The notes under the pieces: model-generated
What the model was told of the DNA's origin: nothing
Seen by the model: the letters and a program-made list of their open reading frames with translations, nothing else
Databases searched by the model: none
Shown here: positions 7,156 through 38,128 of the stretch, piece after piece
Layout: each line of letters opens with the position of its first letter
Numbering within the stretch: position 1 is the stretch's first letter
Source of the DNA: a virus
Virus genome (UHGV): UHGV-0331319
Strand: one strand, 5' to 3'
DNA length: 40,398 nucleotides
Made by a program: the position numbers and the translations under genes

Positions 7156-7293
7156 TTAGTTTTTATTTCGTTCTGGATCCTTCGCGGTTGCCGCCGCTGG
7201 GGTCCGTTTTTTATATGTACTGCACTGGTACATCCTGCTCCGTTCAGGACACTTGTTCCGTTTCTGGCATGTCCCGCATACATCCCTTTCCAT
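7156..7293 (-). CDS. small Cys-rich (zinc-ribbon-like) protein, 45 aa
   Basis: GAAGGGAGGTGAGG RBS + ATG; MERDVCGTCQKRNKCPERSRMYQCSTYKK... has a CxxC ... C ... C spacing. Confidence 0.35.
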   Translation of the reverse strand: MERDVCGTCQKRNKCPERSRMYQCSTYKKRTPAAATAKDPERNKN

Positions 7294-7308
7294 AGGCCTC
7301 ACCTCCCT

Positions 7309-7530
7309 TCATGCCCCCATTACTATCAGCACGACCAGCGCAAATACCATCCACATCCCAACTCCCCATATGACCATGGGCACCACCCACTTGGCCAGCC
7401 GCATCCATGGACCGTCACGCCAGTTCCGGCGCCGCTTGAATGTTATCAGCCGCCTGTGGCCCATTACACTGGTGAGTACTGCCGTGGCAGGTCCTGTAAT
7501 ATCCAGGCGCCATTCATCCTGTCTCTTCAA
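7309..7530 (-). CDS. small protein with C-terminal hydrophobic helix, 73 aa, TTG start
   Basis: GGAGAGGAGG 7 nt upstream of TTG; C-terminus MVIWGVGMWMVFALVVLIVMGA. Confidence 0.3.
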   Translation of the reverse strand: MKRQDEWRLDITGPATAVLTSVMGHRRLITFKRRRNWRDGPWMRLAKWVVPMVIWGVGMWMVFALVVLIVMGA

Positions 7531-7562
7531 GATTCGTCCTCCTCTCCCCTGACATGTTGTGG

Positions 7563-7757
7563 CTATCCCTCCTTTGTGTTTATCTCTGGGTAGCCTTCAA
7601 TAAACTCTTCCAGATCGCTCCCCCGGATCTTTGTCCGGCCCAGCTTAAGCGCACGCAGTTCCCTTTTTCTGATCAGGTCATACACGGTGTCTGTGTTTGT
7701 CAATAGCACGGTTGCTACTTCCTCCACTGTGTACAATGGCTTATAGGGTTCTACCAT
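7563..7757 (-). CDS. excisionase-family helix-turn-helix DNA-binding protein, 64 aa
   Basis: YTVEEVATVLLTNTDTVYDLIRKRELRALKLGRTKIRGSDLEEFI resembles MerR/excisionase-type HTH; AGGAGG + 9 nt + ATG (MVEPY). Confidence 0.55.
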   Translation of the reverse strand: MVEPYKPLYTVEEVATVLLTNTDTVYDLIRKRELRALKLGRTKIRGSDLEEFIEGYPEINTKEG

Positions 7758-7795
7758 TTTCCACATCCTCCTTCCTTTTTCCAGTTGCACACACA

Positions 7796-8533
7796 TCACG
7801 CCACTCCTAAGTTCATCTGCGCGTTGGCTGCCTCGATCAGTTCTACCAGATATGTAGGAGCCTCATAACAGTCGATCAAATCATGAGCATCTGCTATATA
7901 CTTCCGCTTCAGCGCCTTGTAGGATTTCGGTCTGCCACTGTCGTCATAGATACCAAACTCACGCTTGATCTGGTCGTAGATGTCCCGGTAGACCTTGGAG
8001 CGGATCTCTGTATCCTGGTACGCCTCGGACTGCTTGCCGCCCAGAACGGACACGCCCTTACGTTTCACATGGTTAGACAGTTCATCTGCTTCGGAACCGT
8101 ACAAGGGGATGTCAAACTCCAGCTTGTCCATGCGCTGCTCCATCTTAACCTGCTTCTGGTCAATCATCAGGATGGCTTTCATTTCTGTGGACATGTTCGG
8201 GTTTTCGTAATATCCATTCTGCCGGATGGACGGGAGCACATCATCAAACACCCAGGATTCAAAACGTTCTGCACTCTCTAATTTACTGTGGGTGATGAGA
8301 CGGTACATGTCGCCCTCGGGGATGACATTGACCTCTATTTGCTTATCAGGGTTCTGCGGGTGAGGTATTCCCTGTTTTAGGGTATACCGGCAATGCATTG
8401 CTACAGCATTGGCAGGTTTCTCGTATCCTAAAGCCCTTGCCACATCACTCGCCACAAAATAAATCTTCCCTTCAATCTCTACTGTCCTTACCTGTCCAAA
8501 TTCCTCGTTGTTGAAAATCTTTATATCGTTCAT
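7796..8533 (-). CDS. phage antirepressor (Bro-N domain plus C-terminal KilA-C/ORF6C-like domain)
   Basis: IFNNEEFGQVRTVEIEGKIYFVASDVARALGY is a textbook Bro-N/AntA N-terminus. Confidence 0.75.
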   Translation of the reverse strand: MNDIKIFNNEEFGQVRTVEIEGKIYFVASDVARALGYEKPANAVAMHCRYTLKQGIPHPQNPDKQIEVNVIPEGDMYRLITHSKLESAERFESWVFDDVLPSIRQNGYYENPNMSTEMKAILMIDQKQVKMEQRMDKLEFDIPLYGSEADELSNHVKRKGVSVLGGKQSEAYQDTEIRSKVYRDIYDQIKREFGIYDDSGRPKSYKALKRKYIADAHDLIDCYEAPTYLVELIEAANAQMNLGVA

Positions 8534-8733
8534 GCGTCCTCCTTCTTTTCATCTGCAAAGTACTCCACCGGAACGCCGAAATACTTTGCCAGGATTAACA
8601 ACTTGTCAAACTTTGGTTTACTACGGCCATTTTTCCAGTCAGATAGAACAGATTGAGCGATTCCTGTCTCTTTAGATACTTGATAAGACGTTTTGTTACT
8701 TTTCTCTAACAAATCAGCAAATTTTTTGTACAA
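8530..8733 (-). CDS. Cro-like XRE-family HTH regulator, 67 aa
   Basis: SYQVSKETGIAQSVLSDWKNGRSKPKFDKLLILAKYFGV; divergent from the CI-like gene across an operator region. Confidence 0.7.
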   Translation of the reverse strand: MYKKFADLLEKSNKTSYQVSKETGIAQSVLSDWKNGRSKPKFDKLLILAKYFGVPVEYFADEKKEDA

Positions 8734-8950
8734 AACTACACCGCCTTTCTTTAATATAACTGTTGAAAATACTACGGAAATGTGATATGCTTTGTTTACC
8801 AGACGAAGTAAATAACATTTCCGCAGCGTGCAAAGGTTTTGTAACGCAATTCCTTTGTATGCTCATACTATACTATGCATTTCCGATAATGTCAATAGTA
8901 TTTTTCGGTTTTTCATAGTATTGTCTGCGGTTTGTGAAAGGTGGACAATT
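8734..8950. promoter_or_regulatory. divergent lysogeny-switch control region between the cro-like and cI-like genes, with repeated operator-like half-sites
   Basis: ACATTTCCG at 8816-8824 and 8878-8886, with an inverted copy CGGAAATGT at 8771-8779; several ATAGTAT/ATACTAT copies; TTGAAA-17-TATGCT promoter-like element near 8756-8784. Confidence 0.5.
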
Positions 8951-9376
8951 ATGTATGAAATTTTTGAACAATTATTACAAAAGAATAGCGTAACGGCCTA
9001 CAAAGTGTCGAAAGAAACTGGAGTCACACAATCTACGCTTAGCGACTGGAAACGTGGACGAAGCACTCCAAAAAGTGACAATATGAAAAAAATAGCTGAT
9101 TATTTTGGTGTAAGCGTGGATTATCTCATGACTGGAAAAGACGAACCCAAGCAAAAAGCCCCTGAACTTAATGCACGGGATGAACGAGACATAGCAAAAG
9201 ACCTGAATAATATTATGCAAAAACTCACTTCTGGAGAGGCGGGGCCCGCCAGTTACGATGGTGAAGAGCTCGATCCTGAAGCTGCGGAGTTGTTCCGGGA
9301 CGAACTGGAGATAGCCCTTCGCCGTTTGAAAATCATAAATAAAGAAAAATATACTCCCAAGAAATACAAAAAGTAG
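8951..9376 (+). CDS. CI-like XRE-family HTH repressor, 141 aa
   Basis: AAGGTGG RBS + ATG; VTAYKVSKETGVTQSTLSDWKRGRSTPKSDNMKKIADYFGVSVDYL; immediately followed by an ImmA-type protease gene. Confidence 0.7.
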   Translation: MYEIFEQLLQKNSVTAYKVSKETGVTQSTLSDWKRGRSTPKSDNMKKIADYFGVSVDYLMTGKDEPKQKAPELNARDERDIAKDLNNIMQKLTSGEAGPASYDGEELDPEAAELFRDELEIALRRLKIINKEKYTPKKYKK

Positions 9377-9385
9377 GTGACGTTT

Positions 9386-9820
9386 ATGGGAGAAATCGAA
9401 CAAATAAAACGTCTTGTTGCGTATTACAAAGGAAATTATGCTACAAATGACCCTTTTGAAATTGCCGACCGCATAGGAGTCCTCTATCAGATAGGTAATT
9501 GTAAGCATGAGGGCTGTTACATGTTTCTGAAAAACCATCGGTATATATTTCTCAGCAACAAATTAAAAGGGATTGAACTAAAAGTTGTTATGGCTCACGA
9601 ATTAGCCCATGCCATTTTTGACAGAAAAGAAAACTGTTATTTTATTCGCAATAAAACTTTGTTGCTTAATTCTAAAACAGAACGTAGAGCAAATCGGTTC
9701 GCGGCGTATCTTTTGATTGATGATGATCTGTTAGAGTATTATGAGAATTACACAAAAGAACAGTTTTGCGACTGTACGGGATTCCCTAAAGAGTTAATTG
9801 AACTGAGGTTAAGACAATGA
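9386..9820 (+). CDS. ImmA/IrrE-family zinc metallopeptidase (anti-repressor protease)
   Basis: HEXXH motif (MAHELAHAIFD); ATG after AGGTGA; paired with the upstream XRE-HTH gene. Confidence 0.75.
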   Translation: MGEIEQIKRLVAYYKGNYATNDPFEIADRIGVLYQIGNCKHEGCYMFLKNHRYIFLSNKLKGIELKVVMAHELAHAIFDRKENCYFIRNKTLLLNSKTERRANRFAAYLLIDDDLLEYYENYTKEQFCDCTGFPKELIELRLRQ

Positions 9821-10887
9821 ACATTTTTACTTTTTTCAAGAACAGATGCAATAGCAATAAAAAAGACAATGTATTATCAGAGACATCAACCATTGATAGC
9901 TTTAATAATATTATAAAGCATAACTTGGAAGAACCTCTAGGTATCATTACAAACTATTCTCAAGACGGCTATGTATTAAGTAACATGGAGAATATTTTAG
10001 TTCCTCAAGCCATGGAAGAATGCCAAACAGATTTTATAAACACTCTGATTAAATTTAATTCTCCAGCTACGCTAAAATTAGTGCTTTTTGATAGTAGTTC
10101 TATTGTTTATAATATTTACAATCCAATTCCGCATATGTTAATTCCAGTTATGACGAACACAGATCTATGGGCTCGTGTGCTTGCTTTTGTATGCTCAGAA
10201 ATCCAAGATAGAACATACAAATTTTTAGAGGTGGAAGCCAAAAATGTTGATAACTATAATAAAATAATCCATTCTGCAGGTGGAGAACAGTTACCCAAAA
10301 TTGTAATTATTGTGAACGAAATTCATGATTTACCAAATACTGCCGAAGATAGTTTATTGCAACTGCTTTTGAAATCTAACCGTGTAGGAATATATTTAGT
10401 TTTATTTTCTAAATTTAGCATTAAAAATCTAGCACTTGGTATAAAAATGGATCTATTAAAAGTATACAGCGGCAGCCAGTTAAATCAGGTATTTAATTTG
10501 ACTAATCAATTATCCGATAATAAGCAAATTAATCTTTCATATGACAACATGGATGGTCATCAGTTCGAGTATTTTTGTGCAACTCTTCTCAAAAAAAATG
10601 GTTTTGTAAACGTCTCTGTTACCCAAGGAAGTGGCGACCACGGTATTGATATTCTAGCAGAGAAAGATGGAATAACTTATGCTATCCAATGTAAATGTTA
10701 CCAATCAGATATAGGAAATTCAGCTATACAGGAAGCTCATTCGGGAAAAGGCATATATAAAAGAGATATTGCCGTTGTTATGACTAACAGATATTTTACT
10801 AAGCAAGCTATAAATGATGCCAATGCTCTTGGCGTAAAATTATGGGATCGAACACAATTAGAAAAGTTTGTAAACAACTCTAAATAA
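9817..10887 (+). CDS. Mrr-type PD-(D/E)xK restriction-endonuclease-domain protein with an N-terminal degenerate FtsK/SpoIIIE-like domain, 356 aa
   Basis: C-terminal GHQFEYFCATLLKKNGF...GSGDHGIDILAEKDG...AIQCKCYQ matches the Mrr catalytic-domain pattern; central LPKIVIIVNEIHDL...LLQLLLKSNRVGIYLVLFSKFS resembles the Walker-B/arginine-finger/ATQRP blocks of FtsK-like ATPases, but no Walker A is visible; strongly AT-rich relative to neighbouring genes. Confidence 0.65.
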   Translation: MNIFTFFKNRCNSNKKDNVLSETSTIDSFNNIIKHNLEEPLGIITNYSQDGYVLSNMENILVPQAMEECQTDFINTLIKFNSPATLKLVLFDSSSIVYNIYNPIPHMLIPVMTNTDLWARVLAFVCSEIQDRTYKFLEVEAKNVDNYNKIIHSAGGEQLPKIVIIVNEIHDLPNTAEDSLLQLLLKSNRVGIYLVLFSKFSIKNLALGIKMDLLKVYSGSQLNQVFNLTNQLSDNKQINLSYDNMDGHQFEYFCATLLKKNGFVNVSVTQGSGDHGIDILAEKDGITYAIQCKCYQSDIGNSAIQEAHSGKGIYKRDIAVVMTNRYFTKQAINDANALGVKLWDRTQLEKFVNNSK

Positions 10888-10898
10888 CTCAGAAAGCA

Positions 10899-10937
10899 AA
10901 AAAGCCCCAGGAGCCGCAAACTCCCAAGGCTTTTCAC
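10899..10937 (+). terminator. candidate rho-independent terminator downstream of the Mrr-like gene
   Basis: aaaagcc ... ggctttt outer stem with an inner GGAG/CTCC stem, followed by a T-run. Confidence 0.35.
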
Positions 10938-11065
10938 ATAGATTTCTCTTACTGGGTACGCCCCAGAAGATACAGATTTGTTGGACAAACAAATTATATC
11001 ATTCCTGGAGCGTCCTGGCAAGAGGCGTATTTTTTATACTCATTTTGAGATAGGAGGAATGATAT

Positions 11066-12271
11066 ATGGGACAACTGAGAACACGCAAACGCGGATCCAC
11101 CTGGGAATGGTCCTTTGAAGGCGCCAGGATCAATGGTAAGCGCAACCCGATCAGCCAGGGAGGATATCGCACCAAAGGTGACGCGATCACTGCCGGCACC
11201 CAGGCTAAAGCCGAATACGATAACGCTGGGCGAAGGTTTACACCCTCAGACATCAGTGTTTCGGATTATTTGGATTATTGGTACGAAAATTACGTCAAAA
11301 CAAACCTGGCACACAACACCCAGGTAAGCTACGAGCGTTTACTTCGCGTCCACCTTAAACCTACTTTTGGGAAATACCGGCTTTCAGCGTTGGAAACCGA
11401 TGTTATTCAGAAATGGGTGGACGGCATGAAGCGCCAAGGCTATTCCAAGAGCATGGTCAAAAATACGCTGTCCTGCCTGTCTGGCGCCCTGGGGTACGCC
11501 GTATACCCCTGTAGATATATCAAGTATAATCCCTGCGATTATGCCAAACTCCCCAAAATTGCTGTGTCTGAGGAGACCAAGGCGCACACGGAATATATCT
11601 GTGGCAAAGAGGACTGGACTGCTATCATTGACCGGTTCGGCCCAGACAGCAATTTCTACCTTCCACTTATGACCGGGTATCACTGTGGTACCCGGCTTGG
11701 GGAGACCTATGGCATTGATCTGCTGCATGATGTGGACCTTGACAACCACGCCATAACCATCCGGCATCAGTTGTCCAATGAGGGCGGGAAATGGTACTAT
11801 AGGCCACCAAAATATAATTCCGTACGGACAATAAAGATCCTGCCAGAGTATGAAAGCATCCTGAGGGCTGAAATCCATGAACGCAAAAAGAACATGCTGC
11901 GGTATGGCCAGTACTTTACCCGATCCTACCAAATGGATGATGGTCTAATCTTCCAGGCTCCCGCCAATGTCCAGATTACAGGAACGGAGATTATGCCGAT
12001 CAGCACTAAGGAGAATGGCGAGTTGCTAACCCCCTACTCTTTTAAATACTGTGCCAAGGTCATCCATGAGGAATTGGAAAACCCATTATTCCACAGCCAC
12101 TGCCTACGCCACACACACGGCACGCTGTTGGCAGAGAATGGAGCCCAGCCCAAAACAGTCATGGAACGCCTGGGCCACAAGGACATCAAGACTACCATGA
12201 ACCGTTATGTATTCAACACGGAAAAGATGCAAAACAATGCCATGGTAATTCTGGCAGATGCCATATCGTAG
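11066..12271 (+). CDS. tyrosine-type site-specific integrase, 401 aa
   Basis: C-terminal HCLRHTHGTLLAENG ... LGHKDIKTTMNRYVF (R-H-R-Y catalytic signature); N-terminal arm-binding-like domain; GGAGGAATGATAT-ATG start. Confidence 0.85.
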   Translation: MGQLRTRKRGSTWEWSFEGARINGKRNPISQGGYRTKGDAITAGTQAKAEYDNAGRRFTPSDISVSDYLDYWYENYVKTNLAHNTQVSYERLLRVHLKPTFGKYRLSALETDVIQKWVDGMKRQGYSKSMVKNTLSCLSGALGYAVYPCRYIKYNPCDYAKLPKIAVSEETKAHTEYICGKEDWTAIIDRFGPDSNFYLPLMTGYHCGTRLGETYGIDLLHDVDLDNHAITIRHQLSNEGGKWYYRPPKYNSVRTIKILPEYESILRAEIHERKKNMLRYGQYFTRSYQMDDGLIFQAPANVQITGTEIMPISTKENGELLTPYSFKYCAKVIHEELENPLFHSHCLRHTHGTLLAENGAQPKTVMERLGHKDIKTTMNRYVFNTEKMQNNAMVILADAIS

Positions 12272-12618
12272 CGATCTTGCCTACCGTTTAAAAAAGGGTA
12301 GGCAAGGGGTAGGCAAGGCAACCACTCAGAGCGGATAAATGGCCCGTCACCCCTTGATTTTACGTGATAATTTCACAACAGTTTCCACATGATTCGTTTA
12401 TTGATATCCAACCACGTACTAGCATATTTTTGCGCATTTTGCCATAAAACACCCCCTGTTTTAAAGGATTTAAGAGAGACTTTTATACATATTGGCACAT
12501 ACACACACATGTTGGCATATATTAACACATGCGCAGGGTAGACAAATGGTAGACATTGCCTACCAAATAGCGAAAGGCGGGCCCGGTCACACATCACCGG
12601 TACCCGCCTCGTTACATT
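12272..12618. other. candidate attP: about 350 bp non-coding region with six arm-type repeats GGTAG(G/A)CA
   Basis: direct copies at 12297-12307, 12308-12318, 12537-12545 and 12548-12555; inverted copies at 12276-12285 and 12557-12564; A-tract and TTGGCA(C/T)AT repeats between them; immediately 3' of int. Confidence 0.45.
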
Positions 12619-12834
12619 TTAGTTTGACCGTGGACATGGACGCCTATTCCATCTCCCGTCTTCAAATCCTACTCTATAACCATCATTAAAACCTTCCCGA
12701 TATGCCCAACGCCTCTCATTGGCGCACGGGTCCCAATTGTTACCCCAGTTTCCGCCCCAGTTATTTCCTCCACCAGAACTGAACCACCACGGGCAGCAAC
12801 AGCAGCATCTACAGCAACATCTACAGCAACACAT
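12619..12834 (-). CDS. extremely Cys-rich small protein, 71 aa (MCCCRCCCRCCCCC... followed by a Gly/Asn/Trp-rich repeat)
   Basis: strong AGGAGGAG RBS 6 nt before ATG; 16 Cys in total, 11 in the first 14 residues; GGGNNWGGNWGNNW repeat. Confidence 0.55.
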   Translation of the reverse strand: MCCCRCCCRCCCCCPWWFSSGGGNNWGGNWGNNWDPCANERRWAYREGFNDGYRVGFEDGRWNRRPCPRSN

Positions 12835-12893: not shown

Positions 12894-13040
12894 TTACTGC
12901 TTCCTTTCTTCCTGTATCCTCCTCCAGATTTCCTCAAACTCACCCGGATCCGGCTTCGGAATGACATCATCCGGGACGTGATCCCTGGCCCATTCATACT
13001 CTTTCAACAGTTCTTCATCAGATTCTTTCAGCTTCTCCAT
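12894..13040 (-). CDS. small acidic protein, 48 aa, upstream partner of the Cys-rich gene
   Basis: AGGATGGGAG RBS + ATG; MEKLKESDEELLKEYEWARDHVPDDVIPKPDPGEFEEIWRRIQEERKQ; same strand, about 60 bp upstream of the Cys-rich gene; below the ORF-track size cut-off. Confidence 0.4.
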   Translation of the reverse strand: MEKLKESDEELLKEYEWARDHVPDDVIPKPDPGEFEEIWRRIQEERKQ

Positions 13041-38054: not shown

Positions 38055-38128
38055 TAGCGAAGGCAGGATTTGAACCTGCGACCTCCGGGTTATGGGCCCG
38101 GCGAGCTGCCAGACTGCTCTACCTCGTA
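38055..38128 (-). tRNA. tRNA-Met (CAU) with initiator-like features
   Basis: hand-folded cloverleaf: D stem GAGC/GCTC; anticodon stem CCGGG/CCCGG (three G-C pairs at 29-31:39-41); loop CCCAUAA; 5-nt variable loop; T arm GCAGG-TTCAAAT-CCTGC; acceptor 5/7 paired with a 1:72 mismatch; 74 nt; no encoded CCA. Confidence 0.6.

Follow-up and report, generated by a model that had tools for sequence, protein, structure and literature searches.

Here, we analysed gene X, an open reading frame (ORF) of 356 aa that starts with ATG and occupies positions 9817..10887 (+) of UHGV virus genome UHGV-0331319, a stretch of 40,398 nucleotides (the window), between the genes for an ImmA-type metalloprotease and a tyrosine integrase. 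Our results indicate that X is, probably, a lysogen-expressed, ATP-independent defence or superinfection-exclusion nuclease of a temperate Enterocloster phage, in which an apparently dead relative of the FtsK/SpoIIIE DNA pump is fused to an Mrr-family nuclease. The family architecture, the conserved loss of the P-loop, the asymmetric divergence of the two domains, the cargo hotspot in which the gene resides and the edges of its cassette are new; the nuclease family itself is known. If this reading is correct, X represents a new single-gene defence family from gut Lachnospiraceae and Oscillospiraceae, groups that defence catalogues, compiled largely from Proteobacteria and Bacilli, cover poorly. 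It would also mean that a DNA-pump domain was re-used as a nuclease scaffold or sensor after loss of its ATPase, a counterpoint to the ATP-driven HerA/FtsK-nuclease systems.

The pseudo-FtsK and Mrr domains of X

A first-pass annotation, made by reading the sequence without database searches, had described X as a degenerate FtsK-like N-terminal region joined to a C-terminal Mrr nuclease. Profile searches bear out both halves of this description, and the parts of X are as follows.

9817..9933 (+), residues 1-39: 'MNIFTFFKNR' (predicted short helix), a low-confidence linker and a helix; AlphaFold2 (AF2) pLDDT below 50 for residues 1-25
9934..10506 (+), residues 40-230: FtsK/SpoIIIE beta (RecA-like) domain without ATPase motifs
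10003..10029 (+), residues 63-71 'PQAMEECQT': Walker A position, from alignment columns
10300..10320 (+), residues 162-168 'IVIIVNE': Walker-B equivalent, aligned to FtsK 'IVVVVDE'
10507..10533 (+), residues 231-239: inter-domain linker, disordered (AF2 pLDDT below 50)
10543..10869 (+), residues 243-351: Mrr-family PD-(D/E)xK nuclease domain; Pfam Mrr_cat, E 5.6e-28

Pfam FtsK_SpoIIIE matches residues 69-164 of X with an E value of 4.8e-10, above the gathering score, and the match opens at profile position 55, right after Walker A. When the N-terminal domains of 21 relatives were combined into a family profile (residues 36-232), it matched the crystal structures of FtsK motors (E 1.3e-19), EccC (1e-11) and TcpA (6e-8), so that both the RecA-like beta-domain fold and the homology to FtsK motors are found in X. 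The ATPase motifs, however, are gone from this otherwise recognisable domain. In an alignment of 61 relatives, long forms included, X has 'VPQAMEECQT' against FtsK 'AGATGSGKS', with the glycines lost and the lysine replaced by Gln70 (Q in 54 of the 61), and the P-loop G-x-x-G-x-GK[ST] is absent from all 61. The Walker-B aspartate position, residue 167, is Asn in X and is N in 35, S in 19 and D in 5 of the 61, whereas Glu168 is invariant (61/61). Hence, the missing Walker A and the change from Asp to Asn in the DE box, both of which had been noticed by eye, are confirmed in alignment. The blocks that had been read as an arginine finger and an ATQRP motif fare differently: the region does align with FtsK, but FtsK 'LILATQRPS' corresponds to 'LVLFSKFS' in X, such that 'ATQRPS' is replaced by 'FSKFS', and the arginine-finger position is K199, a site that varies among R, Q and K across the family and is not conserved. 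Neither an alpha domain, nor a C-terminal gamma winged helix, nor an N-terminal membrane anchor was detected in X. Thus, instead of an ordinary intact domain, the N-terminal region presents one in which the P-loop, the Walker-B Asp and ATQRP have all been lost; because these three defining ATPase motifs are missing, X is not an FtsK translocase, and the region appears to be a genuine but catalytically dead FtsK-type domain.

A profile search of 1.84 billion representative proteins returned 56 matches below 1e-30 before the results merged into genuine FtsK/EssC proteins. Among the matches listed, every one that covers the full-length module lacks the P-loop, and nearly all carry Mrr_cat, the exceptions being short or ending at the module. 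Given that the P-loop-less state is kept across about 60 cluster representatives and travels with Mrr_cat, it is better explained by selection for a non-ATPase role than by decay. We also considered whether X itself could be a pseudogene or a decay remnant. The protein is found, 100% identical, on 88 contigs, Enterocloster citroniae assemblies among them, and this identity, together with retention of the P-loop-less module in the cluster representatives, led us to reject that option.

The C-terminal domain has the restriction-endonuclease-like fold, with an Mrr_cat score that exceeds the curated cut-off. In the Mrr family, motif I is a Phe-Glu pair in the first helix (LlaGI E38, Mrr E172), motif II is D-x-G-x-D with a family-specific extra Asp, and motif III is Q-x-K in place of (D/E)-x-K (PMC2790908). 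All three are present in X: F250-E251 (61/61 relatives); G-D274-H-G276-I-D278, aligned to LlaBIII 'KDTGVD', with D274 in 60 of 61 and G276 and D278 in all; and Q291-C-K293, aligned to LlaBIII 'IQAK', with Q291 in 60 of 61 and K293 in all. Through the LlaBIII alignment, E251, D274, D278, Q291 and K293 correspond to LlaGI E38, D74, D78, Q92 and K94, respectively. In LlaGI, D74A, D78A and K94A abolish cleavage, and mutations of E38 and Q92 reduce it (PMC2790908). The triad positions (D/Q/K) that an inactive domain might have lacked are therefore either invariant or kept in 60/61 relatives, and the nuclease, with its catalytic residues intact, looks active. A weaker Pfam match to NA-iREase1 raised the option of an inactive restriction endonuclease (REase), which we rejected in view of the same conservation. 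No Mrr_N or other modification-reading domain (SRA, PUA) was found in X with Pfam at E values up to 1. Because it lacks a reader domain, X is not an Mrr-type Type IV enzyme, although public records label it 'restriction endonuclease'.

The ImmA-to-integrase slot and the relatives of X

The gene stands out from its surroundings in composition. Its GC content of 0.317 (GC3 0.261) is lower than that of any other 1071-bp stretch in the window, for which the mean is 0.471 (sd 0.045), and compares with 0.358 for ImmA and 0.497 for the integrase. The AT-rich gene reported between ImmA and the integrase coincides exactly with an ORF. Two related phages delimit it. L111, which carries a PD-Lambda-1 gene and a serine integrase, is 94% identical to window positions 8554-9811, the match ending six bases before the X ATG. 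L192, whose integrase is 88% identical to that of the window, has a PD-Lambda-1 homologue exactly in the place of X; its homology to the window has a left end at 9192, within the CI gene, and restarts at 10895, eight bases after the X stop. Across cargo-swapped relatives, homology restarts at 10895-10928. The breakpoints, about 9812 and 10895, thus put the edges of the AT-rich cassette within 8 bp of the ends of the ORF. From these sharp boundaries, X is an exactly delimited cassette of a single gene that has an established defence gene as its allele, in line with the separate acquisition that had been proposed from its composition.

The exchange is not limited to PD-Lambda-1. We collected loci L110-L228 from IMG/VR, anchored on homologues of the window ImmA, which are 54-99% identical and come from 80 phage contigs, and of the integrase, from 39 contigs. 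Of the 89 phage loci with ImmA, 7 have nothing between ImmA and the integrase, 8 have a member of the pseudo-FtsK-Mrr family there and 53 have other cargo; in the other 21, the interval extends past the contig end. This other cargo comprises 82 non-redundant ORFs, including 7 PD-Lambda-1 homologues (E down to 7e-157), 5 Uma2/PDC-S03 proteins, 3 ThsB-type TIR proteins with SLATT/DUF4231, 2 AbiD, PDC-S22, PDC-S25, PDC-S48, PDC-M24, PBECR nucleases and HSDR_N. Also present are choline-binding-repeat, DUF5067, KilA-N and zinc-ribbon proteins, and many ORFs of 130-520 aa without a Pfam or PADLOC match. The slot is a polymorphic defence hotspot in related phages. Whatever the function of X, this sharply bounded site, with PD-Lambda-1, AbiD, Thoeris-like and many unannotated genes, offers a convenient starting point in the search for new systems and for studies of how prophages confer phage resistance in the gut. 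The name PD-Lambda-1 comes from a functional screen for anti-phage systems in E. coli (bioRxiv 10.1101/2022.05.12.491691); the protein (DUF4041 + T5orf172) is unrelated to X, and the relation between the two is allelic and positional only.

The surroundings of X form a textbook lysogeny switch, in the order Bro-N/ORF6C antirepressor (-), Cro-like helix-turn-helix (HTH) (-), CI-like HTH (+), ImmA/IrrE M78 (+), X (+) and tyrosine integrase (+).

7796-8533 (-): Bro-N/ORF6C antirepressor
8530-8733 (-): Cro-like HTH protein
8763..8791 (+): promoter-like site TTGAAA-17-TATGCT with an upstream TG, before CI-ImmA-X; weak, from a consensus scan only
8895-8867 (-): divergent promoter-like site TTGACA-17-TATAGT facing the Cro-like gene; weak, from a consensus scan only
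8951..9376 (+): CI-like HTH repressor, first gene of the putative operon of X; Pfam HTH_3 E 8e-13, Phage_CI_repr E 2e-5
9377..9820 (+): ImmA/IrrE-type M78 metalloprotease; Pfam Peptidase_M78 E 3.7e-11
9805..9808 (+): GAGG, Shine-Dalgarno-like motif 8 nt 5' of the X ATG, read from the sequence
10899..10935 (no strand assigned): GC-rich terminator-like hairpin, 12 nt past the X stop, at the right cassette edge; terminator scan and RNA fold
11066..12271 (+): tyrosine integrase, right flank of the cargo slot; Pfam Phage_integrase, Phage_int_SAM_3

The TGA of ImmA and the ATG of X overlap as ATGA at 9817-9820, which supports translational coupling of X to ImmA, and CI, ImmA and X would be co-transcribed, as suggested by their orientation and the gene overlap; the promoter scan (15 sites against a shuffle expectation of 11.7) and the terminator scan did not exceed chance. 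Thus, the earlier proposal that X is expressed with the repressor operon stands as far as the coupling and co-orientation with ImmA are concerned, and expression itself is what we infer from them. The hairpin folds at -13.3 kcal/mol (z -2.4), its terminator likeness being clearer on the minus strand. The start of ImmA is likely 9386 (ATG) rather than 9377, as public contigs call a protein of 144 aa; the same CI-like gene is called in six public contigs. A 187-aa antisense ORF across CI and ImmA (8975-9538, -) is called in no public contig and is almost certainly spurious.

X is the short form, without gamma, of a larger Lachnospiraceae/Oscillospiraceae family with the usual layout FtsK-gamma winged helix-turn-helix, pseudo-FtsK, Mrr_cat, a relation that the first-pass annotation had missed. 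Relatives at 40-50% identity are mostly longer (415-670 aa) and start with a variable N-terminus, often a coiled coil, followed by the FtsK-gamma winged helix, pseudo-FtsK and Mrr_cat; in most of them, a gamma domain precedes the motor remnant. An N-terminal peptide of the type M-x-F-(I/M)-(K/R)-K-F-(F/L)-D is common to short and long members (16/61 by the strict pattern), as seen when MNIFTFFKN of X is set beside MNFMRKFFD and MAFIKKFID in a comparison that included the N-termini of P0006, P0013, P0026, P0042 and others, and 6/61 relatives have a strongly hydrophobic, transmembrane (TM)-like N-terminal segment. These shared peptides and TM-like starts may point to membrane association. X looks like an internal-deletion derivative that kept the N-terminal peptide and lost the gamma domain with the region preceding it. 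Other layouts are pseudo-FtsK followed by Mrr_cat, as in X, and the permuted order Mrr_cat, gamma, pseudo-FtsK. Three Mrr_cat-FtsK fusions retain the canonical beta-then-gamma order: P0205 and P0237, with independently degenerate P-loops, and P0210, with an apparently intact motor (GTTGSGKT and IIDE). Taken together, they may record successive stages by which an active translocase-nuclease gave rise to the dead form. P0210 also has a C-terminal flavodoxin-like region that is, maybe, a mis-joined ORF.

Divergence within the family is asymmetric. Across the pseudo-FtsK sub-family, mean identity to the query is 69% in the nuclease and 36% in the pseudo-FtsK domain; the latter appears to evolve about twice as fast, and in relatives it is replaced by other N-terminal modules. 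A whole-protein alignment search of 185,579 species-representative genomes, dominated by the nuclease module (SGDHGIDIL, YAIQCKCY), found this module at 333 places, nearly all in Lachnospiraceae and Oscillospiraceae and with widely varying N-termini; 80 loci were kept. In Acetatifactor and other Lachnospiraceae, standalone copies of the module (many within L058-L103; 55-60% identical) frequently have a Mem_trans transporter upstream and a DUF885 protein of about 610 aa downstream, and these copies look vertically inherited, not mobile. Among cultured phages, a DNA near-identity search with 8500-12300 gave no match, and a protein-mode search gave one long-form homologue, in Bajarodcaudo virus 3, and nuclease-only matches; a plasmid search with the N-domain of X recovered genuine FtsK genes only.

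The expected recurrence of homologues in int-proximal slots was indeed found: at 38-68% identity, they are present in different prophages with tyrosine or serine integrases and different attachment sites. Enterocloster prophages share the CI-ImmA-X-Int module and differ otherwise in replication genes. Other prophages have CI, ImmA, X, Uma2 and a tyrosine integrase beside efp (P0067); CI, a 156-aa ORF, X and a serine integrase (P0048); CI, an ImmA-fused X and a tyrosine integrase (P0125); or, in Blautia (L026), Cro, CI, ImmA, X, Uma2 and a serine recombinase. One relative shares a chromosomal islet with YoeB/YefM and a serine recombinase. In about 18 further genomes, the repressor-to-integrase position is taken by multi-domain relatives that have other N-termini, and the cultured temperate Roseburia phage Jekyll (L230, LR596902, 41216-45599), an experimentally tractable relative, encodes an Xre-like repressor, a COG2856/ImmA-type gene annotated as a toxin, a 280-aa Mrr-module protein, an HslV-like protein and an integrase. 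Because no partner gene is conserved beside family members in the loci compared, X appears to be a single-gene system.

The 660-aa P0125 protein (L104, L105 4001-5983), recovered in two samples from a prophage whose neighbouring host gene is of the kind found next to the phage of the window, starts with 80 residues that are 61% identical to the window ImmA, including HELGH, and continues with the long-form gamma, pseudo-FtsK and Mrr domains. It is, probably, a deletion fusion of adjacent genes, and it shows that ImmA and X have long been neighbours. We considered it as 'Rosetta-stone' evidence of functional coupling between ImmA and X, and rejected this use of it, given that only about 80 N-terminal ImmA residues remain. 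A putative nuclease of the Uma2 family (PDC-S03), of about 185 aa, often lies just before the integrase (L026, L106-L108, L124, L140, L148, L149, L154, L163). It is sometimes directly downstream of a pseudo-FtsK-Mrr gene (P0067 and the Blautia loci), which suggests stacked cargo or, possibly, a two-gene combination.

No description of the X architecture was found in literature combining FtsK with Mrr, REase and defence, the nearest being the analysis of DndH, and no PADLOC model covers the whole protein, in agreement with the initial impression that X is not a named system. PADLOC-DB v2.0.0 models match residues ~223-355 (ZorD, E 4e-21; PDC-S02, 6e-13; LmuA, 1e-8), and the SspH model matches a short stretch, 79-171; these models were compared without the PADLOC coverage thresholds, and X is not counted as a member of the matched systems. 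Indeed, PDC-S02, ZorD and LmuA have an Mrr-type effector domain like that of X, but these matches are confined to the third of X that holds the nuclease, and no relation exists between the N-terminal parts. E. coli Mrr (Type IV) and the Type ISP enzymes LlaGI and LlaBIII have the same fold and the same F-E, D-x-G-x-D and Q-x-K motifs as the C-domain of X; Mrr, however, has the Mrr_N winged-helix reader that X lacks, and LlaGI and LlaBIII have an SF2 motor, a methyltransferase and a target-recognition domain where X has the dead FtsK module. Compared with FtsK/SpoIIIE and the degenerate EssC/EccC ATPase domains of type VII secretion, X has no P-loop, ATQRP/Arg finger, alpha domain, membrane anchor or gamma domain, has Asn for the Walker-B Asp, and is fused to a nuclease. 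In long relatives, gamma precedes the motor remnant instead of following it. DndH/DptH and SspH of phosphorothioate-dependent restriction likewise combine an REase fold and an FtsK/HerA domain in one chain, but DndH and SspH have about 1700 residues, active ATPase domains and partner proteins, unlike the standalone, ATP-dead X with its 356 aa. HerA-DUF4297 and other nuclease-NTPase systems follow a similar logic with two genes and an active ATPase; X is one chain, presumably oligomeric, with an inactivated NTPase. Finally, in the single-gene defence system Shedu (SduA), a nuclease with a conserved PD-(D/E)xK core bears N-terminal domains that are diverse and serve in sensing or regulation (10.1101/2023.08.10.552793; 10.1101/2023.08.10.552762). 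The X family resembles Shedu in its conserved Mrr module and swappable N-termini; however, the Shedu nuclease is DUF4263, not Mrr_cat, and no PADLOC Shedu model matches X at E values up to 10.

Function and its alternatives

Expression in the lysogen, oligomerisation, nuclease activity, a defence phenotype and its trigger enter the reading that we favour as steps of the following scheme, which we infer from the domains and position of X. The protein would be made in the lysogen as the last product of the repressor operon CI, ImmA, X, and its C-terminal Mrr-family PD-(D/E)xK domain would cut DNA. Its N-domain, a putative descendant of the FtsK/SpoIIIE motor, would be unable to bind or hydrolyse ATP, and X could not pump DNA because it has no P-loop, has Asn at the Walker-B Asp position and lacks ATQRP and the Arg finger. 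FtsK beta-domains form rings around double-stranded DNA. The pseudo-FtsK domain may have been kept as an oligomerisation and duplex-DNA-binding platform and may act as a specificity or sensor module that sets when and where the nuclease fires; such a sensor role, as proposed here, would explain its fast evolution and the swapping of N-termini. In long-form relatives, the winged helix of FtsK-gamma would contribute further DNA binding. DNA entering from a phage or another foreign source would then be cleaved without ATP, and host DNA might be spared either because the nuclease is gated by assembly on the invader or because the host lacks the DNA feature that is recognised. Independent support for defence, which had been the initial reading of X, comes from the genes that take its place in related phages, among them PD-Lambda-1, AbiD and ThsB-TIR.

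In a bolder version, which we put forward tentatively and hold to be rather less likely than defence as such, the P-loop-less FtsK would be a new type of ATP-independent sensor. It might form a passive ring or oligomer on a feature of invader DNA, such as free duplex ends or membrane entry, or bind a phage protein, and thereby switch on Mrr. X and its relatives might then constitute a modular, Shedu-like family of single-protein immunity, specific to gut Clostridia and spread via the repressor-to-integrase hotspot.

Several points weigh against the defence reading. No self-protection device (methylase or immunity gene) is visible for X that would let the lysogen tolerate a constitutive nuclease, and oligomerisation and DNA binding by the dead motor are properties that only its fold would suggest. 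Standalone copies of the nuclease module, about 150 aa long, account for about 35 of the 80 kept loci (333 found), many beside Mem_trans and DUF885, and given these copies, the module is not exclusively mobile or defensive. Some pseudo-FtsK members stand alone in the chromosome, and P0032 lies in a phage head-gene cluster; at such sites, expression in a lysogen is not implied. Furthermore, no model in PADLOC-DB v2.0.0 spans the whole of X, the matches being limited to the nuclease part and the short SspH-like stretch.

The head-gene member brings up an alternative, namely, that X is a nuclease for the benefit of the phage in lytic growth or competition, which degrades host or competitor DNA, or conjugative or plasmid DNA moved by FtsK-like coupling proteins. 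P0032 lies within the head-morphogenesis cluster beside AntA/ANT, the long form of Bajarodcaudo virus 3 lies between the integrase and lysis genes without ImmA, and the N-domain also resembles the conjugative coupling protein TcpA. We nevertheless regard such a role as unlikely: in the window and in at least 6 other prophage types, X is co-oriented with, and directly follows, the repressor/ImmA genes, as expected of a lysogenic transcription unit (in the window, it overlaps ImmA), and the other occupants of the slot are defence genes. Slightly less likely is the view of X as a conventional restriction enzyme of the modification-dependent kind (Type IV, Mrr-like), in which the N-terminal region is a mere structural remnant without sensing. 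The full signature motifs of Mrr_cat and the public name would fit this alternative, but no modification reader (Mrr_N, SRA, PUA) was detected, and retention of the dead FtsK module across about 60 cluster representatives, with a conserved core that includes the invariant Glu168, argues for a function. This alternative and the defence reading agree on the outcome, that is, defence by DNA cleavage, and differ only in the trigger.

The missing immunity partner would also fit an addiction or toxin-like module, with the nuclease restrained by CI, ImmA or its own N-domain and killing cells that lose or misregulate the prophage. In Roseburia phage Jekyll, the annotation toxin-antitoxin is given to pairs of Xre and COG2856 (ImmA-type), and one relative adjoins YoeB/YefM. 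Yet the slot is empty or holds unrelated genes in closely related, evidently viable phages, no small neighbour gene is conserved, and CI and ImmA are set opposite a Cro-like gene and an antirepressor, as in a genuine phage switch, all of which makes this alternative improbable. The lowest probability, by a little, goes to an auxiliary role for X in the lysogeny switch or in site-specific recombination, either as a sensor of DNA damage or DNA ends feeding ImmA, or as an FtsK-like activator of the neighbouring recombinase. FtsK-gamma activates XerD, and relatives of X have FtsK-gamma; the ImmA-integrase position recurs, and P0125 fuses the N-terminus of ImmA to a long-form X. However, X itself lacks the gamma domain, and P0125, with its remnant of ImmA, has the look of two adjacent genes brought together by a deletion instead of an enzyme designed with two domains. 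The slot is dispensable and polymorphic, and the family is found with both tyrosine and serine integrases, with S24-type self-cleaving repressors without ImmA, and outside lysogeny modules. Moreover, a sensor or activator needs no conserved catalytic nuclease residues.

Attachment site and module exchange

Comparison with integrated copies places one further feature downstream of the integrase gene.

12389..12397 (no strand assigned): approximate attP boundary; blastn matches of L002 and L005 to the window end at 12397 and 12389, respectively

The integrated copies leave the window match at 12397 (L002) or 12389 (L005), beyond which they have a host tRNA-U5-methyltransferase-like gene or a different mobile element, whereas the window runs on past 12397 into phage lysis genes (12272-12400 was compared with L002 8456-8581). 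Because the copies diverge there, attP lies about 120 bp downstream of int, and the window represents the excised or circular form of the phage, not an integrated prophage.

The lysogeny block at 7194-12397, from the antirepressor to attP and including X, is a mosaic module, 99.4% identical to that of prophages with entirely different replication or recombination genes (L003, L004), namely, DUF2800/PDDEXK_1 and Enc34-type genes, or Sipho_Gp157 and pRha. In the intergenic region between int and the lysis genes, a 71-aa ORF (12619-12834, -) starts with a Cys/Arg run (MCCCRCCCRCCCCC...), followed by a Gly/Asn/Trp-rich stretch; it has no counterpart among the genes called on contig L001 (100% identical), whose positions are equivalent to about 12373-12594 and 12894-13040 of the window. 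The phage also carries a tRNA-Met (CAT) gene, at 38055-38128 (-).

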